From the UHGV virus genome UHGV-0210496: a stretch of DNA of 47,377 nt; one strand, 5' to 3'. The notes below the pieces were generated by a model. It ran no database searches. It was not told the origin of the DNA and saw only the letters and a list, made by a program, of their open reading frames with translations. The DNA is from a virus. The translations under genes were made by a program, and so were the position numbers. This document shows positions 2,224 through 18,960 of the stretch, piece after piece (within the stretch, counting starts at the first letter, position 1; the number at the start of each line of letters is the position of its first letter).

Positions 2224-2982
2224 ATGAATAAAAAGATTGCTATTTCTTTTCCTGATGGTTCTAATTCCCCAGTTTACGGTGTTTTCGACCTAAACGAATC
2301 TTGTCCTCATTGTGCTTATCCTATAGAGCCTATTATGCGTGGATGTTATGCTGATAAAATCTTTAGCAATATCTATAATACTGCGGCTGTTGTTTTACAA
2401 TGTCCTCGAAAAGAATGTAGAAGATTCCACATACAAGCTTTTGATTTTACGAAAACCGGAAGAGATAACTACACAATAGAAAGAACCGAAGATTTAATTG
2501 TGTATACGTATAAGCCTCTTTTAAAAAATGATCTTCCAAACGAAATACGGGAGACTTTTCCAGAATTTGACACAATATACAATCAAGCACTCGAAGCTGA
2601 ATCTATTGGCTTAGATCAGATAGCTGGGTTAGGGTTTCGCAAATCATTAGAATTTCTCATAAAGTCATTCGCAATAAAAAGAGATGCTGAATCTGAAGAA
2701 AAAATTAAAACGGAAACACTAAATAACACCATTCAAAATCGTTATAATGATTTACCTAGAATACAGAATCTACTTGAGCTTTCGGCATGGATTGGAAATG
2801 ATGAAGCTCATTTTGTCAGGAAACATAGTTCTCTTGATATTCAGACGATGAAACGTTTTATTAGATCAGCTTCGATGTTCATATCTGGTGAACTTGATTA
2901 CGAATTTTCTGATGCGTACGTGACGGCAGAAAAAGAGAGAATCAAGCAAGAAAAGTTAGCTAAACAAAATCAAGATCAATAA
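2224..2982 (+). CDS. DUF4145-domain protein with N-terminal Zn-ribbon; opposite-strand moron, candidate abortive-infection/defence gene
   Basis: N-terminus CPHC...CPRKEC. The C-terminal half carries the DUF4145 hallmark ...LELSAWIGNDEAHF... after helical segments LEFLIKSFAIK. It is the only plus-strand gene inside the minus-strand early operon. Confidence 0.65.
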   Translation: MNKKIAISFPDGSNSPVYGVFDLNESCPHCAYPIEPIMRGCYADKIFSNIYNTAAVVLQCPRKECRRFHIQAFDFTKTGRDNYTIERTEDLIVYTYKPLLKNDLPNEIRETFPEFDTIYNQALEAESIGLDQIAGLGFRKSLEFLIKSFAIKRDAESEEKIKTETLNNTIQNRYNDLPRIQNLLELSAWIGNDEAHFVRKHSSLDIQTMKRFIRSASMFISGELDYEFSDAYVTAEKERIKQEKLAKQNQDQ

Positions 2983-3970: not shown

Positions 3971-4399
3971 TTATCCTCTTTTCTTTTGTAGGTCGATTAC
4001 TTGCTGGCGTTTGGCTTCTTCTTTTTCAATGACATCAATTGGTTCCCCAATGTCGGTTTTGGGTTGTCCGTCTTCTGGATCCAAATACGTTTGACCAGGC
4101 ACTGCCGATCGCAACTCATGTGCTTCTACTTTTCCAGTCGAGAGATCCTTTCCTGTGAGAACCGTTGTCGATACACCTTCCACTGGTGCCAATTTCGTTG
4201 TGAAGTCACTGCTTACTGCAATTACTTGCCGTGTGCCGTCTGGTTTAAATTCAAGCTTGATCGTGACAACTCGTTTGGCTTCTGCTGGTGTATTCGGATC
4301 ATGGATATTTTGAAAAACTTTTTGAAGTTCACCATCCAATTTTTCTTGGATGGCGCCTTCCGCTAATTCTGACAACTGCAAATCAATTTCTTTTGACAT
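3971..4399 (-). CDS. Hypothetical phage early protein (142 aa)
   Basis: ORF immediately downstream of the DUF669-like gene. Acidic and Lys-rich. Confidence 0.5.
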   Translation of the reverse strand: MSKEIDLQLSELAEGAIQEKLDGELQKVFQNIHDPNTPAEAKRVVTIKLEFKPDGTRQVIAVSSDFTTKLAPVEGVSTTVLTGKDLSTGKVEAHELRSAVPGQTYLDPEDGQPKTDIGEPIDVIEKEEAKRQQVIDLQKKRG

Positions 4400-4411
4400 A
4401 GGTGATTCCTC

Positions 4412-5029
4412 CTAAAATGCCCCTGGTTGGTAGTTTTGTGCTGGTTGTTGATTAAATCCTTGTTGCGGTTGGTTCGTTACGGGTGATTGAGTATAGTTTT
4501 GTGCTGGTTGTTGATAGTTGTTCGCTGCTGGTTGACCTTGATAATTTGATTGTGGCTGTTGTAACTGCTGAACGATTGCAGGCATTTCTTTGGTCGTGTA
4601 GTAACTTGCGTCACTTGGATAGAACCGATCGACATCATTGTAGGTGTTGTCTTTGTAAGTCCGATTTTTGATCTTAACTGCTCCTTTTGCACCTGTAACT
4701 AGATTCCAATTCATTTGCAAAGGGGCATCTTTTTTCTTTTGACCGATCGAAGCGAAGAATGCTGACAATAAACCTTCTGTTGACGTATGCAGATACAAGT
4801 TATTGAACACAGTTGCTGTCCCTTGCGGAGAGTCAATTTTCAATTCAAGTTTGGCCATATTGCATGCTGGCAATTTAGAATCACCGCTTTTCGGTGTGTA
4901 GCGAGCTCGTTCAAACTTAACGACTTCAAAAATATAATCCCCTGGTGCTAAGACAATACCGCCTTCACTGTCTTGGACAATGGTGTCATCCCATCCTAAT
5001 TCTCGATCTTGTTGAAATTGTTGTGTCAT
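4412..5029 (-). CDS. DUF669/SSB-like ssDNA-binding protein with Gln/Pro-rich C-terminal tail
   Basis: It sits directly downstream of a Sak4-like AAA_24 gene. The C-terminal low-complexity Q/P/N tail ends ...QPGAF, reminiscent of an SSB C-tail. The family assignment is from memory only. Confidence 0.5.
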   Translation of the reverse strand: MTQQFQQDRELGWDDTIVQDSEGGIVLAPGDYIFEVVKFERARYTPKSGDSKLPACNMAKLELKIDSPQGTATVFNNLYLHTSTEGLLSAFFASIGQKKKDAPLQMNWNLVTGAKGAVKIKNRTYKDNTYNDVDRFYPSDASYYTTKEMPAIVQQLQQPQSNYQGQPAANNYQQPAQNYTQSPVTNQPQQGFNQQPAQNYQPGAF

Positions 5030-5041
5030 TGATAGTTCCTC

Positions 5042-6130
5042 CTAAAATTTTTGTTGTTTTCGAATCTCTTGAATCATTGTAAATACTTGTGGCCATGCAG
5101 CGACTAGCACGCCATCGATGTACCCTGGATCATAGTTTTGAATCGGTGTACCTGTTGGGTAATACCCTTTTGATTCTGTCGCAGCCATGATCTCTGCTGG
5201 AATAACATTGTTTGCTTTCATCAGGTCAACAAGGTTTTGCGGAATCCCAGAGTAATCGACTGCTTCTCGATCAAAATTTAGCTCCGTCGTTGTTGGTTGC
5301 GTTTCTTGTGCCGTTTCTGGCTTGCTCACTGGCATTTCTGTTGTTGCTGGTGTATTTGTAGCTAATGGTTGTTCCACTGCTTGCTTAGGGGCGAAAATGT
5401 GTGCGATCCCACTGAAATTCATGTCCAATTCATCCGGTAAGCCAAATCGATTCTTAGCATCCCAAGCTGGATGATGGGTCGTGTACATCACACGTTTTCC
5501 ACCTTGGCCTTTGAATTTTTTACCTTTGTCATCTGCAGCCACTGACAAGGTTTTGTAATTACAAAACAGCACCATGTCCGCCCATTCTTTTGTAAGGGAA
5601 GAAGTTTTTGCAGTCGTTTTATTCCCTAACTTCAATTCCCATCGATCATAAGCACCCATTTCATCCGGTTGTTCAAATTTCACGATCTTTGCATGGGCTG
5701 TCAAAACAACGTTGATCCCCATCTCAGCAACATCAGATAACTTATTTAGAAAACGCCCATATTCTTCTTCAAGCTTAATGAAGCCTTCCCCATACCCAAA
5801 TTGCGTGATACTTGTTTTGTTCCCAGCGGCAACAATGAAATCAATACAAAGCCGCTCTGCCCAGTCCACTGTATCGATTACGATGGTTTGGCATGGCATT
5901 GCTTGCTTCACGAAATCGATTTGTTGCATCAAGATCGACCAGCTTGACGGTTTATCCATTCTGGCTACATCCATATTGTTGGTGCTTCCCTCTGTATCAA
6001 TAAACACAGGATTTGGGAACTGCGACGCGATGGACGTCTTGCCAATCCCTTCTGGTCCATAGATAACGACTTTTTGGGCTTTGGCGATAACTCCTTTGGT
6101 AATGTTCATTAAAATTCTCCTTCCTTCCAC
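5042..6130 (-). CDS. Sak4-like AAA_24 family ATPase (RecA-fold recombination mediator)
   Basis: The N-terminus has the P-loop VVIYGPEGIGKTS followed by ...FIDTEGS..., the typical AAA_24 pattern. A long Thr/Pro linker and a C-terminal domain follow. Confidence 0.75.
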   Translation of the reverse strand: MEGRRILMNITKGVIAKAQKVVIYGPEGIGKTSIASQFPNPVFIDTEGSTNNMDVARMDKPSSWSILMQQIDFVKQAMPCQTIVIDTVDWAERLCIDFIVAAGNKTSITQFGYGEGFIKLEEEYGRFLNKLSDVAEMGINVVLTAHAKIVKFEQPDEMGAYDRWELKLGNKTTAKTSSLTKEWADMVLFCNYKTLSVAADDKGKKFKGQGGKRVMYTTHHPAWDAKNRFGLPDELDMNFSGIAHIFAPKQAVEQPLATNTPATTEMPVSKPETAQETQPTTTELNFDREAVDYSGIPQNLVDLMKANNVIPAEIMAATESKGYYPTGTPIQNYDPGYIDGVLVAAWPQVFTMIQEIRKQQKF

Positions 6131-7449
6131 TTCGGTTGTTGTGGTGATTGCTGAGGTGTAGGTCCGCCCTCAGATGGTGCTAATCTGTTTTCAGTCACAT
6201 AGCCATCTTCAATTATGATTTCGCACTCATCACCTGTTGAAACGCGGGTTGCAATTGCCTGTAGACCTTCTTGTTCCAGCCACTGGCCAAACTCGTTCAA
6301 CGTGACCATGTCCATCTGTTCCAATTTATCCAACAGGATGAAACCGCAATCCGGTTTTAATTTCCTGACGATTGCCGTCGATACTTTTAACTGATCAGAG
6401 CCAGACATGTTGTCCCATTTTTGACCGTTATAGACTAACTCGCCGTCTGTCACAGATAATCCTGGTAATGGTAGTTGCGCATTAGCGAGTAACGCTGCTT
6501 TTTCTTCTCGAATCGAAGTAATGTCGTTTGTCAGAGTATCGTATTGATTCTTGTATTCGTTGGCATCTTCTTCGGCTTTGTCTTTATCTAGATTTGCCCG
6601 GACACGTCGATTGATCTCGTCGACTTCAGCAATATTTTGTTGGAGTTCTTGTGTCGATTCATCTTGCAGGTTTTCAGCAGTCTTTTGCGCTGTTGCCAAG
6701 TCTGCAGATAATCGATTGCATTCAATTTGTTCTTTTTGCAGTTGTGCTTGAAGTTCTTCAATCCTCGTGTTGATTGCTTGGATATTTGATTTCGATTGTT
6801 CCAACTGAAAAGAGATTTGATTGACTTGATTTCGCTTTTGTTGATTCTCACCATTTCTGGCTAAGATCTCTTGTTGTTTGGCAACTAGATCAGCAACTGC
6901 GATCGGCTCTTTAGGTGCTTCTGGGAAATATGGCTGTTCTGCTGCAAACTTTTTCTTCTGATCGGCAATTTGACCAATCGTGTGCCGCTGGTTATATATT
7001 TCTTGCTCCTTGCGTTCCAGTTCAAATAGTTGATCGCCCACACCAATAATCTGCAGGAGGATATTTGCTTTTTCCTTACTTGACGAATCCATAAATTTCG
7101 GTAGATCGATGGCCAACTCTTCGACAAAGCTGTTCAATAAATTCTGTCCAGCTTTTTCTCCATTGGGATCAATGACCTTCAAATCAGAATTCTTACCTTT
7201 GCGTTCAACGACAAGACCGTTGTTCATGACGATATGGAGGTGTGGTGGTGTGACTGATCCTTCTCGATACGCTTGGCTTGGTTTGTATTTATTGCCACCA
7301 AGTCCCCATGCAATGGCATCAATGACACTAGTTTTCCCTTGGTTATTGTTTCCGCCCACGATGGTTAATCCGCTGGCATTCGGTTCAATCTTTACCGCTT
7401 TGACACGTTTAACGTTTTCGATTTCTAATTTGTTGATTTTCACACTCAC
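6109..7449 (-). CDS. SMC/SbcC-like ABC ATPase (AAA_23) with long coiled coil
   Basis: N-terminal Walker A GGNNNQGKTSVIDAI, a central heptad-rich Q/E/K coiled coil, and a C-terminal D-loop/Walker B ILLDKLEQMD. Confidence 0.75.
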   Translation of the reverse strand: MSVKINKLEIENVKRVKAVKIEPNASGLTIVGGNNNQGKTSVIDAIAWGLGGNKYKPSQAYREGSVTPPHLHIVMNNGLVVERKGKNSDLKVIDPNGEKAGQNLLNSFVEELAIDLPKFMDSSSKEKANILLQIIGVGDQLFELERKEQEIYNQRHTIGQIADQKKKFAAEQPYFPEAPKEPIAVADLVAKQQEILARNGENQQKRNQVNQISFQLEQSKSNIQAINTRIEELQAQLQKEQIECNRLSADLATAQKTAENLQDESTQELQQNIAEVDEINRRVRANLDKDKAEEDANEYKNQYDTLTNDITSIREEKAALLANAQLPLPGLSVTDGELVYNGQKWDNMSGSDQLKVSTAIVRKLKPDCGFILLDKLEQMDMVTLNEFGQWLEQEGLQAIATRVSTGDECEIIIEDGYVTENRLAPSEGGPTPQQSPQQPKWKEGEF

Positions 7450-8841: not shown

Positions 8842-9008
8842 TGATAAAGTAATTCTTGGTACCTTTTGAGATCTCTAACTAGCAAATCTCGTTGAGAATA
8901 GCTCAGTAAGCTTTTTCGATCGTGCAACTGGTCATGGAGGCTGTGTACTCTCTCTTTGGCTAAGGTGTCGATCAGCAACTCTTGTTCAAGTGTGTAGGTC
9001 ATGTTCAC
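8808..9008 (-). CDS. Hypothetical small protein (66 aa)
   Basis: Start overlaps the upstream gene stop (ATGA-type coupling). Confidence 0.4.
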   Translation of the reverse strand: MNMTYTLEQELLIDTLAKERVHSLHDQLHDRKSLLSYSQRDLLVRDLKRYQELLYQCRLNRQIELR

Positions 9009-11270: not shown

Positions 11271-12410
11271 ATGATTAAAGAATATGAAAAAAAAGACGGT
11301 AAAAAATATTGGATGTTTAAAGCTTACTTAGGTGTTGATCCAGCAAGCGGAAAGAAGATTTATACAACAAGGCGTGGTTTTAAAACACAAAAAGAAGCTA
11401 GGATTGCAAAGTCTAGACTTGAATTGCAGGCACAAGATAACAAATATACACCAGAAAAAAATTATACTTTTATAGAGATCCAAAATATGTGGTTTGAAGA
11501 ATATAAAACTACTGTCAGAGAGAGTACCCTATCAAGAGTATCTTTTCTTTTCACTAAAAATATATTTCCTTATTTTGGAAAAAGAAAGATATCCTCATTT
11601 ACTGTCGCATATTGTCAAAAAATCGTTAATAAGTGGAAAGATGAATATTCAACCTATAAAGCATTAAAAACATACACTACTGCGGTTTTTGATTATGCAG
11701 TTCGAATTAATGTTATAAATTCAAATCCCATGAAAGATGTGTACATTTCAAAAGGAAAATATCGAAAAAAAGACGAACGTATTAAGTTTTATGAATCAGA
11801 TGAACTCAAGCAATTTTTGGAAGCTGCTAAACAAGATAAGTTCCCTCTATCCTACCCCTTATTTAGACTTCTGGCTTTTACTGGAATGAGAAAAGGTGAA
11901 GCTTTAGCACTGACTTGGGAGGATATTGATTTTAACAATAAGATGCTAACAATCAACAAAACCATAGCTAGAAACACAAAAAATGAAATCGTGATTAATC
12001 ATCCCAAAACAGAAGCATCGATTAGAGAAATTTCTTTGGATGATACTACAATTGATATCTTAAAAAAATGGCGACAAGATCAAAGAAAGTATTTATTATC
12101 ATTTGGTCACAACTCTCTTAGACCTAATCAGATCATCTTTGCGTCAAAGAACAACAATTATCTGGATCCTCTTAGACCAAATAATATTCAAAAAAGGTTA
12201 TGTAAAGAAAATCAATTAAAGGACATCACCATTCATGGCTTTCGACACACACACTGTAGTTTACTATTTGAAGCTGGATTATCCATACAAGACGTGAAAA
12301 CTAGACTCGGACATTCAGATATACAGACAACCATGAATATATATGCTCATGTAACAAAGAAGCAAAAAGATATCTCAGCAGAAAAGTTTGCTAGATACCT
12401 TAATTTCTAA
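11271..12410 (+). CDS. int: Tyrosine site-specific integrase
   Basis: C-terminal catalytic region ...HGFRHTHCSLLFEAGLSIQDVKTRLGHSDIQTTMNIYAHV... with the R..HxxR..Y pattern. N-terminal SAM-like arm-binding domain. Confidence 0.9.
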   Translation: MIKEYEKKDGKKYWMFKAYLGVDPASGKKIYTTRRGFKTQKEARIAKSRLELQAQDNKYTPEKNYTFIEIQNMWFEEYKTTVRESTLSRVSFLFTKNIFPYFGKRKISSFTVAYCQKIVNKWKDEYSTYKALKTYTTAVFDYAVRINVINSNPMKDVYISKGKYRKKDERIKFYESDELKQFLEAAKQDKFPLSYPLFRLLAFTGMRKGEALALTWEDIDFNNKMLTINKTIARNTKNEIVINHPKTEASIREISLDDTTIDILKKWRQDQRKYLLSFGHNSLRPNQIIFASKNNNYLDPLRPNNIQKRLCKENQLKDITIHGFRHTHCSLLFEAGLSIQDVKTRLGHSDIQTTMNIYAHVTKKQKDISAEKFARYLNF

Positions 12411-12700: not shown

Positions 12701-13264
12701 ATGAAAAAAATAGTTTTGTTGGGATTAGGGATAGTTTTTCTTTCTGGTTGTACATCTAATAATAATGAGACGAGCAATTCTTCTTCACAAGAAAAAGATA
12801 GTGTTAGCACTCCTCACTCAGTTGCTACTACTGTTTCTGAATCATCTTCGGAATCTGAGGCTGCAGGAGTTACTTTTGAAAACACTACTCTTACAACTCC
12901 TGAAGGTATATTTACTTTGACTGGATCTAAAAGTAATGAGAGTGAAGATGGAGACAAGTCTATTTTTGTTACTTTTGATTACAAGAATACGACTGAAGAG
13001 AATCAAAATTTGGAGTTTCTTATTTGGGATTACTTCGATGCTAAACAAATTTTTCCTGATACAACAGAATCTCTTAATTATTTAATGTACATGGATGACT
13101 TTGCATATTATGATTTATACGAGAAAACTCAAGTTGAAATTAATCCTGGCGCAACCGTTCAAGCCGGTTATGGATTTCTACTAAAAGATGCTGACTATCC
13201 TTTAATCATTGATTTTATGGAAGATCCTTCAACCCCTATAGGAAGAATAGAATACGATTATTAA
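12701..13264 (+). CDS. Secreted lipoprotein (DUF4352-like) - candidate superinfection-exclusion/surface protein
   Basis: Signal peptide MKKIVLLGLGIVFLSGC with lipobox LSGC. A Ser/Thr-rich linker precedes a beta-rich domain. Confidence 0.7.
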   Translation: MKKIVLLGLGIVFLSGCTSNNNETSNSSSQEKDSVSTPHSVATTVSESSSESEAAGVTFENTTLTTPEGIFTLTGSKSNESEDGDKSIFVTFDYKNTTEENQNLEFLIWDYFDAKQIFPDTTESLNYLMYMDDFAYYDLYEKTQVEINPGATVQAGYGFLLKDADYPLIIDFMEDPSTPIGRIEYDY

Positions 13265-13270
13265 AATTTC

Positions 13271-13305
13271 AAAGCTCCTACCTTATTTGGTAGAGAGCTT
13301 TTTTT
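13271..13305 (+). terminator. Rho-independent terminator after the lipoprotein gene
   Basis: AAAGCTCCTACC-TTATTT-GGTAGAGAGCTTTTTTT, a stem of about 9 bp with one bulge and a T7 tail. Confidence 0.55.
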
Positions 13306-13318
13306 ATTTTCTGTTCGC

Positions 13319-13347
13319 TTTACAAAACGAACGTTCGTTCGTATAAT
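13319..13347 (+). promoter_or_regulatory. Sigma70-type promoter TTTACA-17-TATAAT whose spacer is a perfect 14-bp palindrome AACGAACGTTCGTT
   Basis: -35 at 13319-13324, palindrome at 13326-13339, -10 at 13342-13347. AAGGAGTG precedes the ATG at 13367. Confidence 0.5.
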
Positions 13348-13366
13348 TCTTGCAAGGAGTGATTGA

Positions 13367-13658
13367 TATGCAAATACCGTTAGCACATCAAAGAACCTAT
13401 GCTTTTGAACGTTACTACTACGAGTTTATCGAAAGAATGGGGCCAGCTCATCTATTATACGATCAATTCGCTAAAACAATGGATAATTTCGGGAAACCCT
13501 ACTTTACGGTACCCTGCAGCTACAGCGGATATCCGGAAGAGCTAGCGTTTGTATTCAAGGTAGAGGGCGAAGATTATTTATTTGATCATGTCAGAACACA
13601 AGATAAAATACTTAGGAAGTACGATCCTAATGAAAAATATAGACCCGGCGGTAACTAA
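13367..13658 (+). CDS. Hypothetical protein (about 97 aa)
   Basis: ATG at 13367 with AAGGAGTG 6 nt upstream. The track ORF 13350..13658 starts slightly earlier. Confidence 0.5.
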
Positions 13659-13659
13659 C

Positions 13660-13926
13660 ATGAATTTAATAGCCATGTATGAACAAGGCTACCTATCTCT
13701 TTATGAGTTTATAAACGCATTTCCCGACTCGATTTCCGAATCACAAGAATACTTATTCGGCTCAAAATGTGTCGAGTTTTATGTTGCTGCCGCATTAGGT
13801 AACACGGACTGTCGCTATTATGTACAAGCTTATGGAGGCGATCAATATGAAAAGGATGAAAGGTGTAGTTTCGAAGATACGTGTGTTGAAGATGAGCAAG
13901 ACCCCTTTGGTGCGGTTTTCGCTTAA
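13660..13926 (+). CDS. Hypothetical protein (about 88 aa)
   Basis: ATG at 13660 directly after the upstream stop (TAACATG). The longer track ORF 13582..13926 overlaps the upstream gene by 77 nt. Confidence 0.35.
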   Translation: MNLIAMYEQGYLSLYEFINAFPDSISESQEYLFGSKCVEFYVAAALGNTDCRYYVQAYGGDQYEKDERCSFEDTCVEDEQDPFGAVFA

Positions 13927-14131
13927 CGAAGTTAACTGCTTGACTGCTGCACACAGTTTGAACTTCTTAGCTGATGTAGACGAAGGAATGCAGATCGTGG
14001 TTGCCGGTGAGTATAATGAACGGAAGCAGTTTGTTGTTAAGAAGTATTCGGTGATTGGAAAAACGAAAATTATGATTGAATTCGAAGCAATGAAAAAGCC
14101 TTCTACTCAAATGAGTAAAGGGCTTTTTTGA
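13847..14131 (+). CDS. Hypothetical protein (about 94 aa)
   Basis: ATG at 13847 with GGAGG 8 nt upstream. It overlaps the previous ORF by about 80 nt in another frame, so one of the two may be spurious. Confidence 0.4.
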   Translation: MKRMKGVVSKIRVLKMSKTPLVRFSLNEVNCLTAAHSLNFLADVDEGMQIVVAGEYNERKQFVVKKYSVIGKTKIMIEFEAMKKPSTQMSKGLF

Positions 14132-14201
14132 CCTTTTAGGATCGAATCTATGATTAGACGGTTATTAGCTTTCTGCTCTGAGCAATTAATCTAAAGATAC
14201 A

Positions 14202-14233
14202 ACCCTACCCACTCTCTGAGTGGGTAGGGTTGA
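14202..14233. terminator. Perfect 13-14 bp inverted repeat between convergent genes (bidirectional terminator candidate)
   Basis: ACAACCCTACCCACTC-TCTG-AGTGGGTAGGGTTG followed by AAAAAAG on the plus strand. The minus-strand reading gives stem + UAUCUUU. Confidence 0.5.
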
Positions 14234-14288
14234 AAAAAGTATGCTCATAGTTTATCACTGAATTAAAATTACAAGTAATCTGAAAAAT

Positions 14289-15749
14289 TTAACTATCTGG
14301 TGTAAAAAAAGTTAGTACAAAAAAATCAAAGAAACCTATTTTTTGTAAAAAAAGTATAACAAAAAAAGCATAACAGCAACCAGAAATTATATTAACATAT
14401 TTTAATTTTTTTATCTCAGGATTTGATATTTTTTTCTCTAAATCACTTATTATATTATCTTCTGTTAAATAAAGTTTGGGATAATAAGTATTCATAATTT
14501 CGACTCTGTTCACATACGTTTGATAGCTTTTAAATTCTCCACTAACAAAATACATAACTAAAAGATATACAGAAAACATTAAAGCTACAAAATATGAAAA
14601 ATTTGAAAAAGATTCATCATTTCGGGAAATAGCCTCGAAAATAAACTTACTCAAAAATATACCAATTACTGAGACTATATTGTTCATTAGGCTTTTCTTT
14701 GTTTCAGATATTTGATTGCTGATTTCCTTTGACATACTAAATTGTTCTTTGATTATCTCTTTCTTTTCTGCAATAAACTTGGTTACTTTTTCATCTACAT
14801 ATAGATCATATTCGCTAATACTTATTTTTAGTAATTTCTCCCAAAAACGTTCATCATAATTGCAATTATTAAATTCCTCTTCCTCAATGCAATCATATAT
14901 TTTGTTTCTTACAATTCTTAGCTTCTCTCTATAACTTGAAGATTCACTAAAAATAAACATATTAATACGTGATATGAACTCATAGCAACTTCCAAGATTA
15001 CCTGTGAGGCTGTTTATGTTTAATTCCTTCACAGCTTGTTTTATTATTAGGAATGAAGTCTGATTTCTGTTATCAAAAATATTTGTCAATGCATTTATCA
15101 TGCACTTTCTCAAAATTTCAGACGTAATTGAACCACTCATACTAACTATAGAAGGTATATAAGATATACTTTTATGATACGCTCTTTGTGTTTGTATAAA
15201 ATTAATATATTCATTATCGATCTTATTATTTTCACTACTAAAACTAAAAATTGAGGAATTAATATTTTGCTTTATAGGACCAACAATTCTAATTTTGTTC
15301 TCTAAGTATTGTAAGTCTGAAATATCTATATAATCAGTTAATTGAATGATTAGCTCAACAAAATTATTCTCCAAACAATACTCAATAACCGGTTTACCTT
15401 CTAAGGGTAAATCAAGATTTTGTATTTTTCTTATTTTTAATCTAACTTCTTCATCATACTCATAGTCTTTTTTTATCTCTGTAATTCTTTCATTTAAATG
15501 TTTATAATCAACAATTTTGGAAGCATCATCTGTTTCAATCAAAAATAGCTGTATACAATCCGATTCATCTAAAAAAGGCTTTGACAAACTGGAAAAAATT
15601 TCTAAATCATCAACTTTAATTGATGCATCCAAAATTTCATCTATTTGAATACGATTGAATGATGACTTAGCAACATTTATTCTTGGTTGAGTATAAGTGA
15701 TGTTTATTTTTTCTAATAAAGAATTAAAAATATTCGCCTCATCATACAT
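14289..15749 (-). CDS. Gene B of an AT-rich two-gene operon: 486-aa protein with a ~340-aa cytoplasmic domain and C-terminal 3-4 TM helices (candidate membrane effector)
   Basis: GGAGA RBS 8 nt before the ATG at 15749, 24 nt after the gene A stop. Hydrophobic helices NNIVSVIGIFLSKFIF, FSYFVALMFSVYLLVMYFVSG and YVNIISGCCYAFFVILFLQKIGFFDFFVLTFF. By eye GC is about 27%, against about 40% for the phage genes. Confidence 0.7.
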   Translation of the reverse strand: MYDEANIFNSLLEKINITYTQPRINVAKSSFNRIQIDEILDASIKVDDLEIFSSLSKPFLDESDCIQLFLIETDDASKIVDYKHLNERITEIKKDYEYDEEVRLKIRKIQNLDLPLEGKPVIEYCLENNFVELIIQLTDYIDISDLQYLENKIRIVGPIKQNINSSIFSFSSENNKIDNEYINFIQTQRAYHKSISYIPSIVSMSGSITSEILRKCMINALTNIFDNRNQTSFLIIKQAVKELNINSLTGNLGSCYEFISRINMFIFSESSSYREKLRIVRNKIYDCIEEEEFNNCNYDERFWEKLLKISISEYDLYVDEKVTKFIAEKKEIIKEQFSMSKEISNQISETKKSLMNNIVSVIGIFLSKFIFEAISRNDESFSNFSYFVALMFSVYLLVMYFVSGEFKSYQTYVNRVEIMNTYYPKLYLTEDNIISDLEKKISNPEIKKLKYVNIISGCCYAFFVILFLQKIGFFDFFVLTFFTPDS

Positions 15750-15773
15750 TCAATTCATCTCCAAGTAATGATT

Positions 15774-16811
15774 TTATCCATGGTTAACCATAGCTTTAGG
15801 AATATCTAATCTAACATAACGATTATCGGTAAGTTCATCAATCTTCACTGTATTGTCATCAACTAACCCTTGCTCAATACTAACCCAAATACTTCTATTT
15901 TCACTGCTTAATCGATATTTCTCACCATTTGTAGGCTGAGATGTAAACGTAGCAGCAGCACTAGGGTTACTTTGTAATATCAAGTTAAAAGTTTCTTTTG
16001 CTAGCGTATCTTCATCCATAGAAGCTTTTTCTAACAAATCATTATTCAATAAAGGATAAATTTCAGTAACAATAGCATTAATAGAAGTTCTTTTTCTCTG
16101 AGACATTATGATATTTAATTGTTTATCAACCGCTTCTAATTCTACTTGATTTTCAACAAAGTCCTTTGCCTTTCTTCTGATAAACCTGTGAGCTAACCGT
16201 GACATAACTTGATCGTCTGCCACTAAAACGCTATTCATAAGGTTGATGAAATAGGTGGATATAGTTTTGTCTTGTTTATCTAAAATCCTTAAATGGAAAT
16301 TATTACCTACAGAATTATCTTCAAAACTATCAATCTTTGATTTATATATAAAAGCACATTTTTGTAAACTATTGCCTAAATCCGGTAACATATTGGGCTG
16401 AATTTTAAACACATTGCCATTCATTTGTATACCTTCATTCAGTTCCATTTTCATTATCGCAAGAAGTTCATCATTCCCAATAAATTCGTCATCAGTAAAT
16501 TTATAAGTAAATACTATAAGAAGAAATGATTTTTTTACAGAGTAATGCATATTCATTTTTAAATGGTCTGCAATTTTCAAAGCAGCTTGTTCGAAATCAT
16601 CTTCTATAAAGCACTTACTACAAGGAATAAAAATATCGCTATTATCTGATCTAAATCTTGCCGCTTTCGAATTCACATCTTTCGTTGATTTTATAATGTG
16701 TTTCTTAAAAAAAACATCAATTTTCGATTCAAATCCCCGCATCACTTCACTCTCACGTGAAATAACTTCCAATTCAGGATCTATTTCAAAAACCTTCAAA
16801 TAATTAATCAT
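15774..16811 (-). CDS. Gene A of the AT-rich operon: 345-aa cytoplasmic protein; tentative NdpA/YejK (NA37) nucleoid-associated-protein-like fold
   Basis: GGAGG RBS 8 nt before the ATG at 16811. The segment KKSFLLIVFTYKF..DEFIGNDELLAIMKME..KIQPNMLPDL recalls the YejK core (GG.VLFCHYRY..EYLLVAVL..INPTHYLDI). NNFHLRILDKQDKTISTYFINLMNS recalls [24 protein letters not shown]. The similarity is from memory, not a search. Confidence 0.65.
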   Translation of the reverse strand: MINYLKVFEIDPELEVISRESEVMRGFESKIDVFFKKHIIKSTKDVNSKAARFRSDNSDIFIPCSKCFIEDDFEQAALKIADHLKMNMHYSVKKSFLLIVFTYKFTDDEFIGNDELLAIMKMELNEGIQMNGNVFKIQPNMLPDLGNSLQKCAFIYKSKIDSFEDNSVGNNFHLRILDKQDKTISTYFINLMNSVLVADDQVMSRLAHRFIRRKAKDFVENQVELEAVDKQLNIIMSQRKRTSINAIVTEIYPLLNNDLLEKASMDEDTLAKETFNLILQSNPSAAATFTSQPTNGEKYRLSSENRSIWVSIEQGLVDDNTVKIDELTDNRYVRLDIPKAMVNHG

Positions 16812-16949
16812 TTAAACAATACCTCCGATTTATCTGCTAACTAAATTAAACCAAAAGGAAGCCCGAAAAACAAGCGTTTTCCAAGACTTCCTATAGCAGA
16901 TATAATCGTATGAGGATTATATGGAAATTATACCAAACATAAGTTCTTA

Positions 16950-16985
16950 TTTCAACGACAAACAACCACTCCCGGAAAGGAGTGG
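16950..16985 (-). terminator. Terminator downstream of the tRNA
   Basis: Hairpin CCACTCC-CGGAAA-GGAGTGG at 16966-16985. On the minus strand it is followed by UUGUUUGUCGUUG. Confidence 0.4.
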
Positions 16986-17037
16986 CACAATTAGATGAAA
17001 AGATTTTTGTAAGGTAACTTATGATCCTAAAAAACAA

Positions 17038-17111
17038 AGTACCTTGTAGGACTTGAACCTACGACCGGACGGTTATGAGCCGTCTGCTCTAACCATCTGA
17101 GCTAAAGGTAC
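17038..17111 (-). tRNA. tRNA with CAU anticodon (Met by anticodon; acceptor and anticodon-stem features suggest lysidine tRNA-Ile2)
   Basis: Manual cloverleaf. Acceptor GTACCTT/AAGGTAC, D-arm GCTC-AGATGGTTA-GAGC, anticodon arm GACGG-CTCATAA-CCGTC (CAT), variable loop CGGTC, T-arm GTAGG-TTCAAGT-CCTAC. G1:C72, so not an initiator. C4:G69, C5:G68 and C29:G41 resemble TilS determinants. Confidence 0.8.
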
Positions 17112-17610
17112 AAAACAACCCACCCTTGGAGAGAGTGGGCTTAAAACAGGGTAAAAAATGTCAGGATATTAGCCCCGGTTAAGGCTATTATCATTCTACA
17201 AGGTATCTTATTTAAATTCAACAAAAATCCACCCTACTATAGTGTAGAGTGGAATTTTCGAAAGAGCAATTACAATAAAATGGATTAGTTGGTATAAATC
17301 CATGATACACTTTAGCATTTTTTATTCAAGAGATTTCTAGCAAAAATATTATCTGATTTTAGAGAGACAAGCTTTTCATTTTGTCATGAATTTACAATTA
17401 TAATATGCTGAAAAACATAGAAATATTTTAGACGATATTCTGAACAATAATATCTATTAAATAAAAATAATGATAAAATAAACAAGAAGAGTGTTAGGCA
17501 CACTTCCCCAAGTTTCCACCGCCTAACTACTCTTCATAAAGTATTGCACGCATCTACTAATTTATAGCATAAACTAAATTACTGCAAGTAAAATGAATAA
17601 GATCTATGTA

Positions 17611-17638
17611 CAAGCCCGCAGAAGCGGGCTATTTTTTA
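17611..17638. terminator. GC-rich hairpin with T6 tail at the endolysin stop (canonical in plus orientation, A-tract plus hairpin in minus orientation)
   Basis: AGCCCGC-AGAA-GCGGGCT at 17613-17630, then ATTTTTT. It overlaps the endolysin stop codon (17636-17638). Confidence 0.5.
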
Positions 17639-18424
17639 TGCTTCTGTTGCTACTTTGCGGAGATACGCAACTTGAACTGGATCTGTGTGAATCCAAGTGT
17701 CATAGCCTGCTTTTTCCATCATCGCTTGGATTTTCTTCAAATCGCCTTCTGATTTCACATGAGTAAATTTGTTTCCTGTCAAAAAGTAAACTTTCGGATC
17801 ATTTTGATTTCTAAATAGTAACATGGTTTCTCCTACTTTCTTTGGTTGAATTTGTGGTGTGTTTGCTTGTGTGTTGTTGCTTGTATTGCTGAAAACTGCG
17901 TTCTTGAATCGTTCGAATTCGCTTGGTTTCGCCACCCAAGGAGCTGGACAGTTTTTGCCTGTCACGTCAAAGTGGCGCCAAATCTTCTCTCTCGTAATAT
18001 GAGGATAAATGGCGATCAATTCTTTGACAGCCTTCACAGCATTTTGGAATGTCTTTTCCGTAATGTTTCCATTCTTGTCTAGGCACATTTCAACACCGAT
18101 CGTTGAATAGTTGGCGTTGCCTATCTTAGAATACAGCGGACGATAGCGTGAACCATCTGCATTGTATTTGCTGATTTCGTTAGCGTGATATGCAACTTCA
18201 TTCAAGGGAATGATACAGAGTGCTTCAATATCATCTATAAACAGTTGAGCAGAAGCATAGGTTCCTTTTAGATTATTAAAATAGTTCTTGTGATTGCGTG
18301 CGGTGCCACCATTGTTGGCGGTGTAGTGCATAACGATACCATCAATACCGTTATTCCTGATACCTGGTCTTGAGTACTCATTAATATTGATATACTCGTA
18401 TTTGATAAAACTCATATCAATCAT
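17636..18424 (-). CDS. Endolysin: N-acetylmuramoyl-L-alanine amidase (Amidase_2/PGRP) plus a C-terminal wall-binding domain
   Basis: ...GIDGIVMHYTANNGGTARNHKNYF... and ...AYHANE... are typical of Amidase_2. A C-terminal domain of about 70 aa follows. It is the last gene of the late operon. Confidence 0.85.
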   Translation of the reverse strand: MIDMSFIKYEYININEYSRPGIRNNGIDGIVMHYTANNGGTARNHKNYFNNLKGTYASAQLFIDDIEALCIIPLNEVAYHANEISKYNADGSRYRPLYSKIGNANYSTIGVEMCLDKNGNITEKTFQNAVKAVKELIAIYPHITREKIWRHFDVTGKNCPAPWVAKPSEFERFKNAVFSNTSNNTQANTPQIQPKKVGETMLLFRNQNDPKVYFLTGNKFTHVKSEGDLKKIQAMMEKAGYDTWIHTDPVQVAYLRKVATEA

Positions 18425-18453: not shown

Positions 18454-18960
18454 CTACTCCTTCTTTTTTGTAAATTCTTGGCCATCGCCATAGTCTGGAA
18501 CATTTTTACTATCCAGAGCTTGGGTTTCAGATTGGCCATCACCATAATCTATTTTGATTTCTGTTACTTTAGGTTTTGGATTTTCAGTACTATCTTGTAG
18601 CTTAGACAGTCTTTCTTTGACCCAATTTGGAATCGGCACACCTAATTGACCTAAATTTTCAGTGATTGAAATCCCGTAAACTGCGATATAGAAAAAGACG
18701 AATGCAGTCGCAAACGTCTCGAGATTCATAATCTTTAGGTAGGGATAAGCAACAATCACTAAGCAAACGACTAGCATATGCTTAACGATTCCAAGTAAAC
18801 CTTTTGTACTGTTGGCATCTTTAATGAACACCCCTTTGAATAATCCTGTCACAATATCCCCGACCACTACCCATAAAAACAACTGCACATATCCATTTGT
18901 CAGCAATCCTCGAAATTCATTTAGTAACACTCCATTATCAATAATCACCATATTTACCAC
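18454..18960 (-). CDS. Holin (phage_holin_4_1/TcdE-like)
   Basis: Helices LFLWVVVGDIVTGLF and LLGIVKHMLVVCLVIVAYPYL. A hydrophilic C-tail carries a duplicated DYGDGQ motif. It lies immediately upstream of the endolysin. Confidence 0.75.
   Translation of the reverse strand: MVNMVIIDNGVLLNEFRGLLTNGYVQLFLWVVVGDIVTGLFKGVFIKDANSTKGLLGIVKHMLVVCLVIVAYPYLKIMNLETFATAFVFFYIAVYGISITENLGQLGVPIPNWVKERLSKLQDSTENPKPKVTEIKIDYGDGQSETQALDSKNVPDYGDGQEFTKKKE

Follow-up and report, generated by a model that had tools for sequence, protein, structure and literature searches.

What is the function of two adjacent, AT-rich genes that domain and defense databases fail to recognize and that a temperate phage carries between its lysis genes and its integrase? 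The question is raised by positions 14289-16985 of virus genome UHGV-0210496, whose complete 47,377-nt sequence was analyzed here and is referred to as the window. The two genes, A and B, had been put forward from inspection of the nucleotide sequence (hereafter the sequence-only reading) as a candidate novel anti-phage system combining a DNA sensor with a membrane effector. Our analysis supports the defense idea, by inference, but not its novelty, because a class of this kind was described in 2026, the PANGU operons, which encode a YejK-like nucleoid-associated protein (NAP) and an effector (Li et al., 2026, preprint, bioRxiv 10.64898/2026.04.06.716658); a YejK-domain system was independently validated in Escherichia coli by DefensePredictor (PMC13092281). 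In type II PANGU, the YejK-like NAP Pag2A is paired with Pag2B, a protein with an acidic, 'DNA-mimicking' N-domain and a C-terminal transmembrane (TM) part (Li et al., 2026); this system and the DefensePredictor one now provide experimental precedent for the sensor-effector logic. We conclude, with some reserve, that A-B is probably an anti-phage module of the type II PANGU sort, carried by a prophage and expressed in the lysogen. The elements on which this conclusion turns are as follows.

15774..16811, minus strand: gene A, 345-aa cytoplasmic protein of divergent NA37/YejK type, proposed sensor
14289..15749, minus strand: gene B, 486 aa
14694..15749, minus strand: cytoplasmic N-terminal domain of B (aa 1-352), acidic, the fastest-evolving part of the pair
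14289..14693, minus strand: membrane part of B (aa 353-486 plus stop codon), with 2-3 hydrophobic segments, proposed effector

Gene A precedes gene B with an intergenic gap of 24 nt. The low GC content of the pair, previously estimated by eye at about 27%, was measured at 30.5% (A) and 25.6% (B), the late genes (17636-45796) having 39%; the 14-16 kb bins (27.8-28.0%) are the minimum of the window, and the entire lysogeny and cargo region (9-17 kb) lies at 31-38%, below the remainder of the window. A protein identical to A is present in Enterococcus casseliflavus genomes, and because full-length homologs at 34-96% identity exist for both proteins (17 for A, 8 for B), A and B are real genes and not chance open reading frames (ORFs).

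Direct scans of A against Pfam (PF04245 included), PADLOC, NCBIfam and PHROGs gave no match at E<=1, and a sequence search of the PDB with the A profile found nothing. The profile, built from 16 homologs and searched against 1.8 billion proteins, retrieved 136 cluster representatives, mainly of 340-360 aa. PF04245 matched 39 of 53 sampled relatives (best E 1e-56), and hhalign aligned the A family with these relatives at a probability of 100% (E 5e-57, 325 columns); A is therefore a highly divergent protein of the NA37/YejK fold, as the sequence-only reading had tentatively suggested. The identical protein at NCBI carries the label 'nucleoid-associated protein', and hydropathy analysis detected no TM segment in A, also in line with that reading. 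By analogy with the published experiments on PANGU and DS-1, A is predicted to bind DNA and to associate with the nucleoid. A kwaB-like relationship, which had been raised for A, was rejected: neither A nor any of its 53 relatives matches KwaB/DUF4868, and the same PADLOC models match the true KwaB of neighboring loci at E 1e-116 or better.

Gene B has the previously proposed architecture of a large cytoplasmic N-domain followed by C-terminal TM segments, as seen both in a structural model and by hydropathy. The N-domain has a net charge of -14 and an isoelectric point (pI) of 4.9, with a net charge of -16 in its first 150 aa, and hydrophobic segments lie at approximately residues 353-376, 380-406 and 449-483. 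The model comprises an alpha/beta cytoplasmic domain (predicted local distance difference test scores of 80-90 across aa 20-220), a long helix and low-confidence C-terminal helices. B gave no significant match to Pfam, PADLOC, NCBIfam or PHROGs, and a PDB sequence search with its profile found nothing. Invariant columns concentrate at aa 313-450, corresponding to a juxtamembrane helix and the first TM hairpin; the highly conserved helix itself, EKKEIIKEQFSMSKEI (aa 328-343), lies on the cytoplasmic side and leads into the TM segments. The N-domain may be called 'DNA-mimicking' on account of its acidic charge, surface mimicry being putative. The effector core of B probably lies in the conserved membrane-proximal helix and TM hairpin, and the A-B interface probably in the acidic domain, which evolves fast and whose divergence parallels that of its NAP.

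A and B are strictly paired and co-diverging. All loci retrieved carry a gene for an A-like protein of 345-376 aa and, directly after it, one for a B-like protein of 475-512 aa. The gaps, 0-29 nt in seven loci besides the window, are within the <40 bp expected of a PANGU-like two-gene operon; the homologs thus occur as the conserved pair anticipated by the sequence-only reading, not independently. Pairing is kept down to 23% A identity, in a Clostridiaceae metagenome-assembled genome where the two genes follow a holin and an amidase. Pairwise identities of A and B correlate (r = 0.93), mean identity being 47% for A, 41% for the C-terminal part of B and 23% for its N-terminal part, and all eight partner proteins examined combine an acidic N-domain (net -7 to -22) with C-terminal TM segments.

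The pair is found in diverse settings. It follows the endolysins of several different phages (L001, L003, L007, L009, L010-13, L019), is flanked by the repressor and ImmA/integrase in L014/L015 (A identity 34%), adjoins AbiH in L024 and, outside any visible prophage, adjoins a PLD-helicase-DUF3427 plus NUDIX pair in L023. A scan of species-representative genomes recovered only two loci. Linkage to defense genes takes the form of AbiH (L024), PLD-helicase-DUF3427 (L023) and, in the phage of the window itself, an Abi_alpha/PDC-S47 gene described below. A-B is patchily distributed, has a low GC content and moves between phages and slots, as is typical of defense cargo.

The course of events that we propose draws on type II PANGU, in which both genes are required, the phenotype is abortive and neither gene alone is toxic; upon T4 infection Pag2A departs from the nucleoid, and it binds the acidic domain of Pag2B with a dissociation constant (KD) of 19 nM (Li et al., 2026). 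In an uninfected lysogen, A would sit on the host chromosome as a NAP of YejK/NA37 fold, from which it would be released when a superinfecting phage degrades or remodels the nucleoid. Free A would bind the acidic, DNA-mimicking cytoplasmic N-domain of B, and B, anchored by its C-terminal TM helices, would then compromise the membrane. The infected cell would cease to support phage growth, and resistance would thus take the form of abortive infection. The operon would be driven by its own constitutive-type promoter, with a leader sequestering the ribosome-binding site (RBS) of A. The expression signals are listed below; SD stands for Shine-Dalgarno.

16927..16955, minus strand: sigma-70-type promoter of A-B (TTGAAA, 17-nt spacer, TATAAT, extended TG)
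16812..16920, minus strand: structured 5' leader RNA, ~110 nt, three-tier predicted fold
16920-16912 with 16826-16816, minus strand: leader outer helix, anti-SD AUAAUCCUC with the SD region, the GGAGG RBS of A being paired
16902-16894 with 16839-16831, minus strand: leader middle helix P1, long-range, UAUAUCUGCUA with UAGCAGAUA
16892-16856, minus strand: leader inner terminator-like hairpin P2, from fold prediction
16855-16840, minus strand: conserved single strand of the leader, UUUUGGUUUAAUU, 3' of P2
16822..16826, minus strand: RBS GGAGG of gene A, paired in the predicted leader fold
15758..15762, minus strand: RBS GGAGA of gene B, 8 nt 5' of its ATG
14200-14232, minus strand: terminator-like hairpin closing the operon, 15-bp perfect stem and 3-nt loop, from minus-strand terminator scoring

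A single promoter and a single terminator flank A-B. The gene coordinates, the 24-nt spacing and both RBSs agree with the sequence-only reading; the flanking hairpin that it described exists and is terminator-like, but has 15 bp at 14200-14232 instead of 14 bp at 14202-14233. Lying about 116 nt upstream of A, the promoter is the best promoter-like site in the interval 14000-17700 (11 of 12 positions match, and TG is present), and its extended -10 element is kept in orthologous loci. The leader RNA of the window folds with a minimum free energy of -37.9 kcal/mol (z -5.3) and is conserved among loci with an A identity of only 43-69%. The promoter and leader were noted in the window (16812-16955) and in loci L007, L009, L011, L017, L019, L023, L024, L028-L053, L054 and L055. 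The same fold was obtained for 17 other leaders, seven orthologous and ten heading alternative cargo. Covariation supports this structure: double changes occur in 13 of 23 pairs, against 6.5±1.6 in shuffled controls (0/500) and 5-6 in slid ones; across 21 diverse leaders, 86.9% of cells are paired, as opposed to 37-54% when slid, and double changes affect 36 cells, against 11.5±3.6 (0/500). Frequent G-U pairs indicate that the leader is a sense-strand RNA. A search of Rfam gave no family match. The outer and middle helices face competition from an alternative hairpin (AUAAUC...GAUUAU), which could act as a switch. As predicted from the fold, a leader that hides the RBS and contains a terminator-like hairpin probably keeps A-B expression low or conditional.

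Tight predicted cis-repression by the leader, together with a closely spaced two-gene operon and conserved TM hairpins, would also suit a toxin-antitoxin or addiction module that stabilizes the prophage, with B as a membrane toxin and A as its neutralizing partner. A natural deletion bears on this reading. Protein P0016 (510 aa, L017 8001-9533, Candidatus Enterococcus testudinis) joins ~170 codons from the start of A to the final ~330 codons of B and was considered as a Rosetta-stone A-B fusion, which was rejected, as it is an in-frame internal deletion of ~1 kb within an A-B locus; the leader of this decayed copy is still ~91% identical to that of the window. The derivative lost parts of both genes together, as an addiction pair might, yet it retains the TM part of B without an intact A, a state that a cell could not survive were B constitutively toxic. 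In PANGU, moreover, the NAP is an activator and not an antitoxin, with no toxicity of either gene by itself, and A has a DNA-clamp fold and is far larger than typical antitoxins. We regard an addiction module as very improbable.

The leader is not restricted to A-B. A pattern search with the leader motif returned 26 viral contigs, two of which (L039 and L043) were rejected as chance matches inside coding sequence. An A-like gene lies downstream of only two viral leaders, and is followed by a B-like gene in just one; the other leaders head complete Kiwa systems, PDC-M66A, a second NAP-like gene with a gene for a 523-aa protein, a typical NA37 gene and several unannotated pairs, each encoding a cytoplasmic protein and a small multi-TM protein. 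In each of the ten alternative leaders that were folded, the anti-SD is paired with the RBS of its own cargo. Conservation ends directly after TAGCAGATA, so that the cassette junction can be placed there. Most contigs have the leader 1.2-3 kb downstream of the lysis genes; Enterococcus phage EG-TP1 has the order holin, endolysin, leader, cargo and, further on, integrase, and in Enterococcus phage vB_ElaS_B1578 the leader comes after ArpU. The Kiwa operons, identified with KwaB at E 1e-116 to 1e-134 and KwaA at E 4e-49 to 3e-69, were found in the following loci.

L036 (leader 4389-4413, minus strand): Kiwa behind the same leader
L041 (leader 8963-8987): Kiwa behind the same leader
L047 (leader 6108-6132): Kiwa behind the same leader
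L051 and L052: Kiwa behind the same leader

In these loci KwaB comes first and KwaA second, the reverse of the canonical Kiwa order, kwaA-kwaB. A-B thus sits in a genuine defense hotspot, and the presence of Kiwa and PDC-M66 in the same leader-headed slot strengthens the defense reading of A-B. This leader-headed, variable defense slot is the most novel element that we observed. One may tentatively go further and regard A-B as one interchangeable cassette of an undescribed prophage defense slot whose promoter and leader form a shared, signal-responsive riboregulator, a proposal that we consider possible but doubtful; the putative riboregulator may silence diverse toxic defense operons (NAP-TM, Kiwa, PDC-M66 and several unassigned pairs of a cytoplasmic and a TM protein) until they are called up by a common cue, for example infection, temperature or a signal based on RNA or protein.

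Two of the other cassettes recur. In L028, L031 and L035 the leader is followed by a second, more divergent NAP-like protein of 338-343 aa (NA37-type profile probability 96.6%), whose partner is an acidic 523-aa protein with two C-terminal TM blocks, an architecture like that of A-B. Similarity to the B family is weak both for this second-NAP-type partner (probability 17%) and for the Clostridiaceae one (probabilities 15-17% for the two types); they have the architecture of B and are at most its putative homologs. In L040, L046, L053 and L054 (4148-5555, EG-TP1 gp34/gp33), the leader heads an unannotated cassette encoding a cytoplasmic protein of 307-321 aa and a protein of 143-157 aa with about four TM segments; no PADLOC match was found for this cassette, a candidate defense pair of unassigned type.

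The co-occupancy of the slot by Kiwa, in which a DNA-binding KwaB is joined to a TM protein, KwaA, brings up a reversed flow of information. B would be a membrane sensor of phage adsorption, injection or perturbation, and A an effector clamp that coats phage DNA and, released by B, blocks phage replication or late transcription, in which case the cell need not die. The DNA-clamp fold of A and the conservation of B, highest in its membrane-proximal region, are both compatible with this order, and in one passage the PANGU authors suggest that PagB might be a sensor licensing PagA (bioRxiv 10.64898/2026.04.06.716658). We nevertheless consider it unlikely: A and KwaB, and B and KwaA, have no relationship in sequence or fold, the large acidic domain of B resembles the ligand of a DNA-binding protein and not a periplasmic or membrane sensor, and the relocalization of the NAP off the nucleoid and the abortive phenotype in type II PANGU favor the NAP as sensor.

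Slot occupancy also bears on whether A-B serves defense at all. The pair could be a lysogenic-conversion or housekeeping module in which a phage NAP is tethered to, or regulated by, a membrane protein; it might then organize or silence DNA of the prophage or the host at the membrane, or influence host physiology. NA37 proteins that act alone, YejK among them, are nucleoid proteins with no known defense role, and about half of NAPs lie in operons of unknown role, only ~8% being defense-linked (bioRxiv 10.64898/2026.04.06.716658). A and B escape recognition in the PADLOC scan, and the neighboring DUF5067 lipoprotein and DUF5960 genes have no defense annotation. Against this stand the protection from phage conferred by NAP-TM operons in two independent studies (PANGU and DefensePredictor), the patchy, mobile and low-GC character of the pair and the nature of the alternatives in its slot, Kiwa and PDC-M66; a role outside defense therefore appears improbable. 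The preferred reading thus remains a PANGU-like anti-phage module, whose immediate surroundings in the window are given below.

17038-17111, minus strand: tRNA-Met(CAT), complete tRNA gene between the endolysin and the A-B pair
16986-16965, minus strand: terminator-like hairpin after tRNA-Met, from terminator scoring
18454-18960: holin, from Pfam annotation
17636-18424: Amidase_2 endolysin, from Pfam annotation
11271-12410: integrase, from Pfam annotation

The gene order by Pfam is holin, Amidase_2 endolysin, tRNA, A-B, DUF5960/DUF5067 genes on the opposite strand, integrase, ImmA and helix-turn-helix repressor. The A-B pair accordingly occupies a post-lysis cargo slot between endolysin and integrase, and both this position and the tRNA and terminator on the upstream flank bear out the sequence-only reading. 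The remainder of the window contains helicase, primase, terminase and tail genes; as the replication, terminase and tail genes wrap round the window ends, the window represents a complete, circularly permuted temperate-phage genome. The tRNA-Met gene was rejected as a component of the system: it lies 5' of A in close relatives alone, 3' of B in Enterococcus hirae and is absent elsewhere. In E. hirae (L019 11840-11913), it is located downstream of B and adjoins the host transfer-messenger RNA gene, and tRNA-Met-like stretches of 73-83 nt are present in Enterococcus, Listeria, Bacillus and Latilactobacillus phage records. The tRNA-Met could be phage-encoded or related to the attachment site.

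Several other features of the phage were noted. Between the closing hairpin and the integrase (12701-14131, plus strand) lie a DUF5067 lipoprotein-like gene, a DUF5960 gene and two small overlapping ORFs; DUF5960 accompanies A-B also in L002 and L019. A low-GC Abi_alpha (PF14337) gene is located at 45854-46738 (plus strand), on the opposite strand within the replication module, and its product matches the PADLOC candidate system PDC-S47 (E 1e-41); it is a second defense-type moron of the same phage. A 34.9% GC patch of the replication module includes, on the opposite strand, an ORF of 252 aa (2224-2982, plus strand) for which Pfam and PADLOC scans gave no match and which may be another moron. 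Among the records searched, 'Acinetobacter phage D2SVT' and vB_ElaS_B1578 (PQ554527.1 vs PQ283533.1) returned equal matches, identity and E-value, and the host label of the former record looks doubtful.

If confirmed, the function proposed here would extend NAP-sensor defense to temperate phages of Enterococcus as lysogenic-conversion cargo. As A is too divergent for current Pfam, NCBIfam and PADLOC models, surveys based on these models probably undercount the class. A-B provides a second lineage in which to ask how a NAP activates a TM effector in type II PANGU, and the leader-headed slot, several of whose cassettes are unannotated, offers a practical means of finding new defense systems. Prophage cargo of this sort can determine which lytic phages work against enterococci, a matter of relevance to phage therapy.

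Comparison with known systems places A-B closest to type II PANGU, with which the architecture match is complete. Both are bicistronic, with the NAP gene first and a gap of <40 bp; both pair a YejK/NA37-type NAP with a partner in which an acidic cytoplasmic N-domain precedes a C-terminal TM domain; and both are linked to mobile elements and defense genes, type II PANGU being found in Bacillota and Pseudomonadota. A-B differs in that A is much more divergent than typical NA37 proteins, and in being prophage-borne, in a post-lysis cargo slot of Enterococcus phages and behind an RBS-sequestering leader.

The DefensePredictor system D390/DS-1 of E. coli allows a comparison at the sequence level. 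It consists of a 391-aa NAP with zinc finger and YejK/NA37 domains (WP_000355468.1) followed by a 404-aa TM partner (WP_000150292.1) (PMC13092281). As in A-B, the NAP gene precedes that of the partner, and the latter combines an acidic N-domain (net -9) with hydrophobic segments toward its C terminus. A broad A-type profile matches the D390 NAP (E 2e-11). Alignment of the B family (10 members) with the D390-partner family (24 members) by hhalign gave a score of 41.4 (E 2e-4, probability 45%) over 231 collinear columns, spanning residues 216-468 of B and 122-385 of the D390 partner, against a best score of 25.4 among 82 reversed or shuffled controls. Comparing single sequences to the D390 proteins was uninformative, the signal coming from family-versus-family profiles alone. 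Both families are most conserved in the helix that leads into the first TM segment. Homology of B to the D390 partner is plausible from these alignments, though unproven. A differs from the D390 NAP in having no N-terminal zinc ribbon, B is 82 aa longer than the D390 partner and unmatched over its first ~215 aa, and the hosts are Enterobacteria for D390/DS-1 and Enterococcus for A-B. Relatives of the D390 partner follow an NA37 gene and adjoin BstA in Serratia, and follow a 387-aa gene with no Pfam match in Pseudoalteromonas.

Several points weigh against a PANGU-type function for A-B. The likeness to type II PANGU was established on architecture, homology to Pag2A and Pag2B being putative; the PANGU study is a preprint, in which the activation of Pag2B by Pag2A is left unexplained (Li et al., 2026). 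A has diverged far enough to be missed by Pfam NA37, NCBIfam and PADLOC, and is acidic overall (pI 5.4), its DNA binding being only predicted. The match of B to the D390 partner is borderline and covers only the C-terminal 55% of B, whose N-terminal ~215 aa have no counterpart in that partner; fold searches of PDB and BFVD with the B model gave no match. Finally, a sensor that needs nucleoid abundance is hard to reconcile with a leader concealing the RBS.

Two other systems join a cytoplasmic DNA-binding protein to a membrane protein. Kiwa shares with A-B this composition as well as the promoter-leader and slot in related phages, and its presence there makes the comparison apt as a positional alternative, not as homology. 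KwaA is a small TM protein of ~200 aa with four TM segments and no large cytoplasmic domain. A is not a DUF4868/KwaB protein and B is not KwaA; the 486-aa B gave no KwaA match with PADLOC models that detected true KwaA in a leader-headed locus at E 3e-69, in agreement with the earlier view that the gene sizes are not those of Kiwa. Lambda RexAB, which is prophage-encoded and lysogen-expressed, comprises a cytoplasmic DNA-binding sensor, RexA, and a depolarizing membrane effector, RexB. A-B resembles it in its proposed logic of a prophage-encoded DNA-binding sensor with a membrane effector; RexB is a small channel with four TM segments, the fold of RexA is RdgC-like and not NA37, and the PADLOC scan revealed no similarity of A or B to RexAB, nor any other significant match. 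E. coli YejK/NdpA (PDB 9be2) shares 10% sequence identity with A; it is a housekeeping NAP encoded on the chromosome without a partner, whereas A is carried by a phage and is strictly paired with B. Because the effector homology is borderline, A-B is a possible member of type II in the strict sense; we class it as a new, highly divergent, prophage-borne member of the PANGU-like class of NAP-TM systems, a kind already described in 2026.

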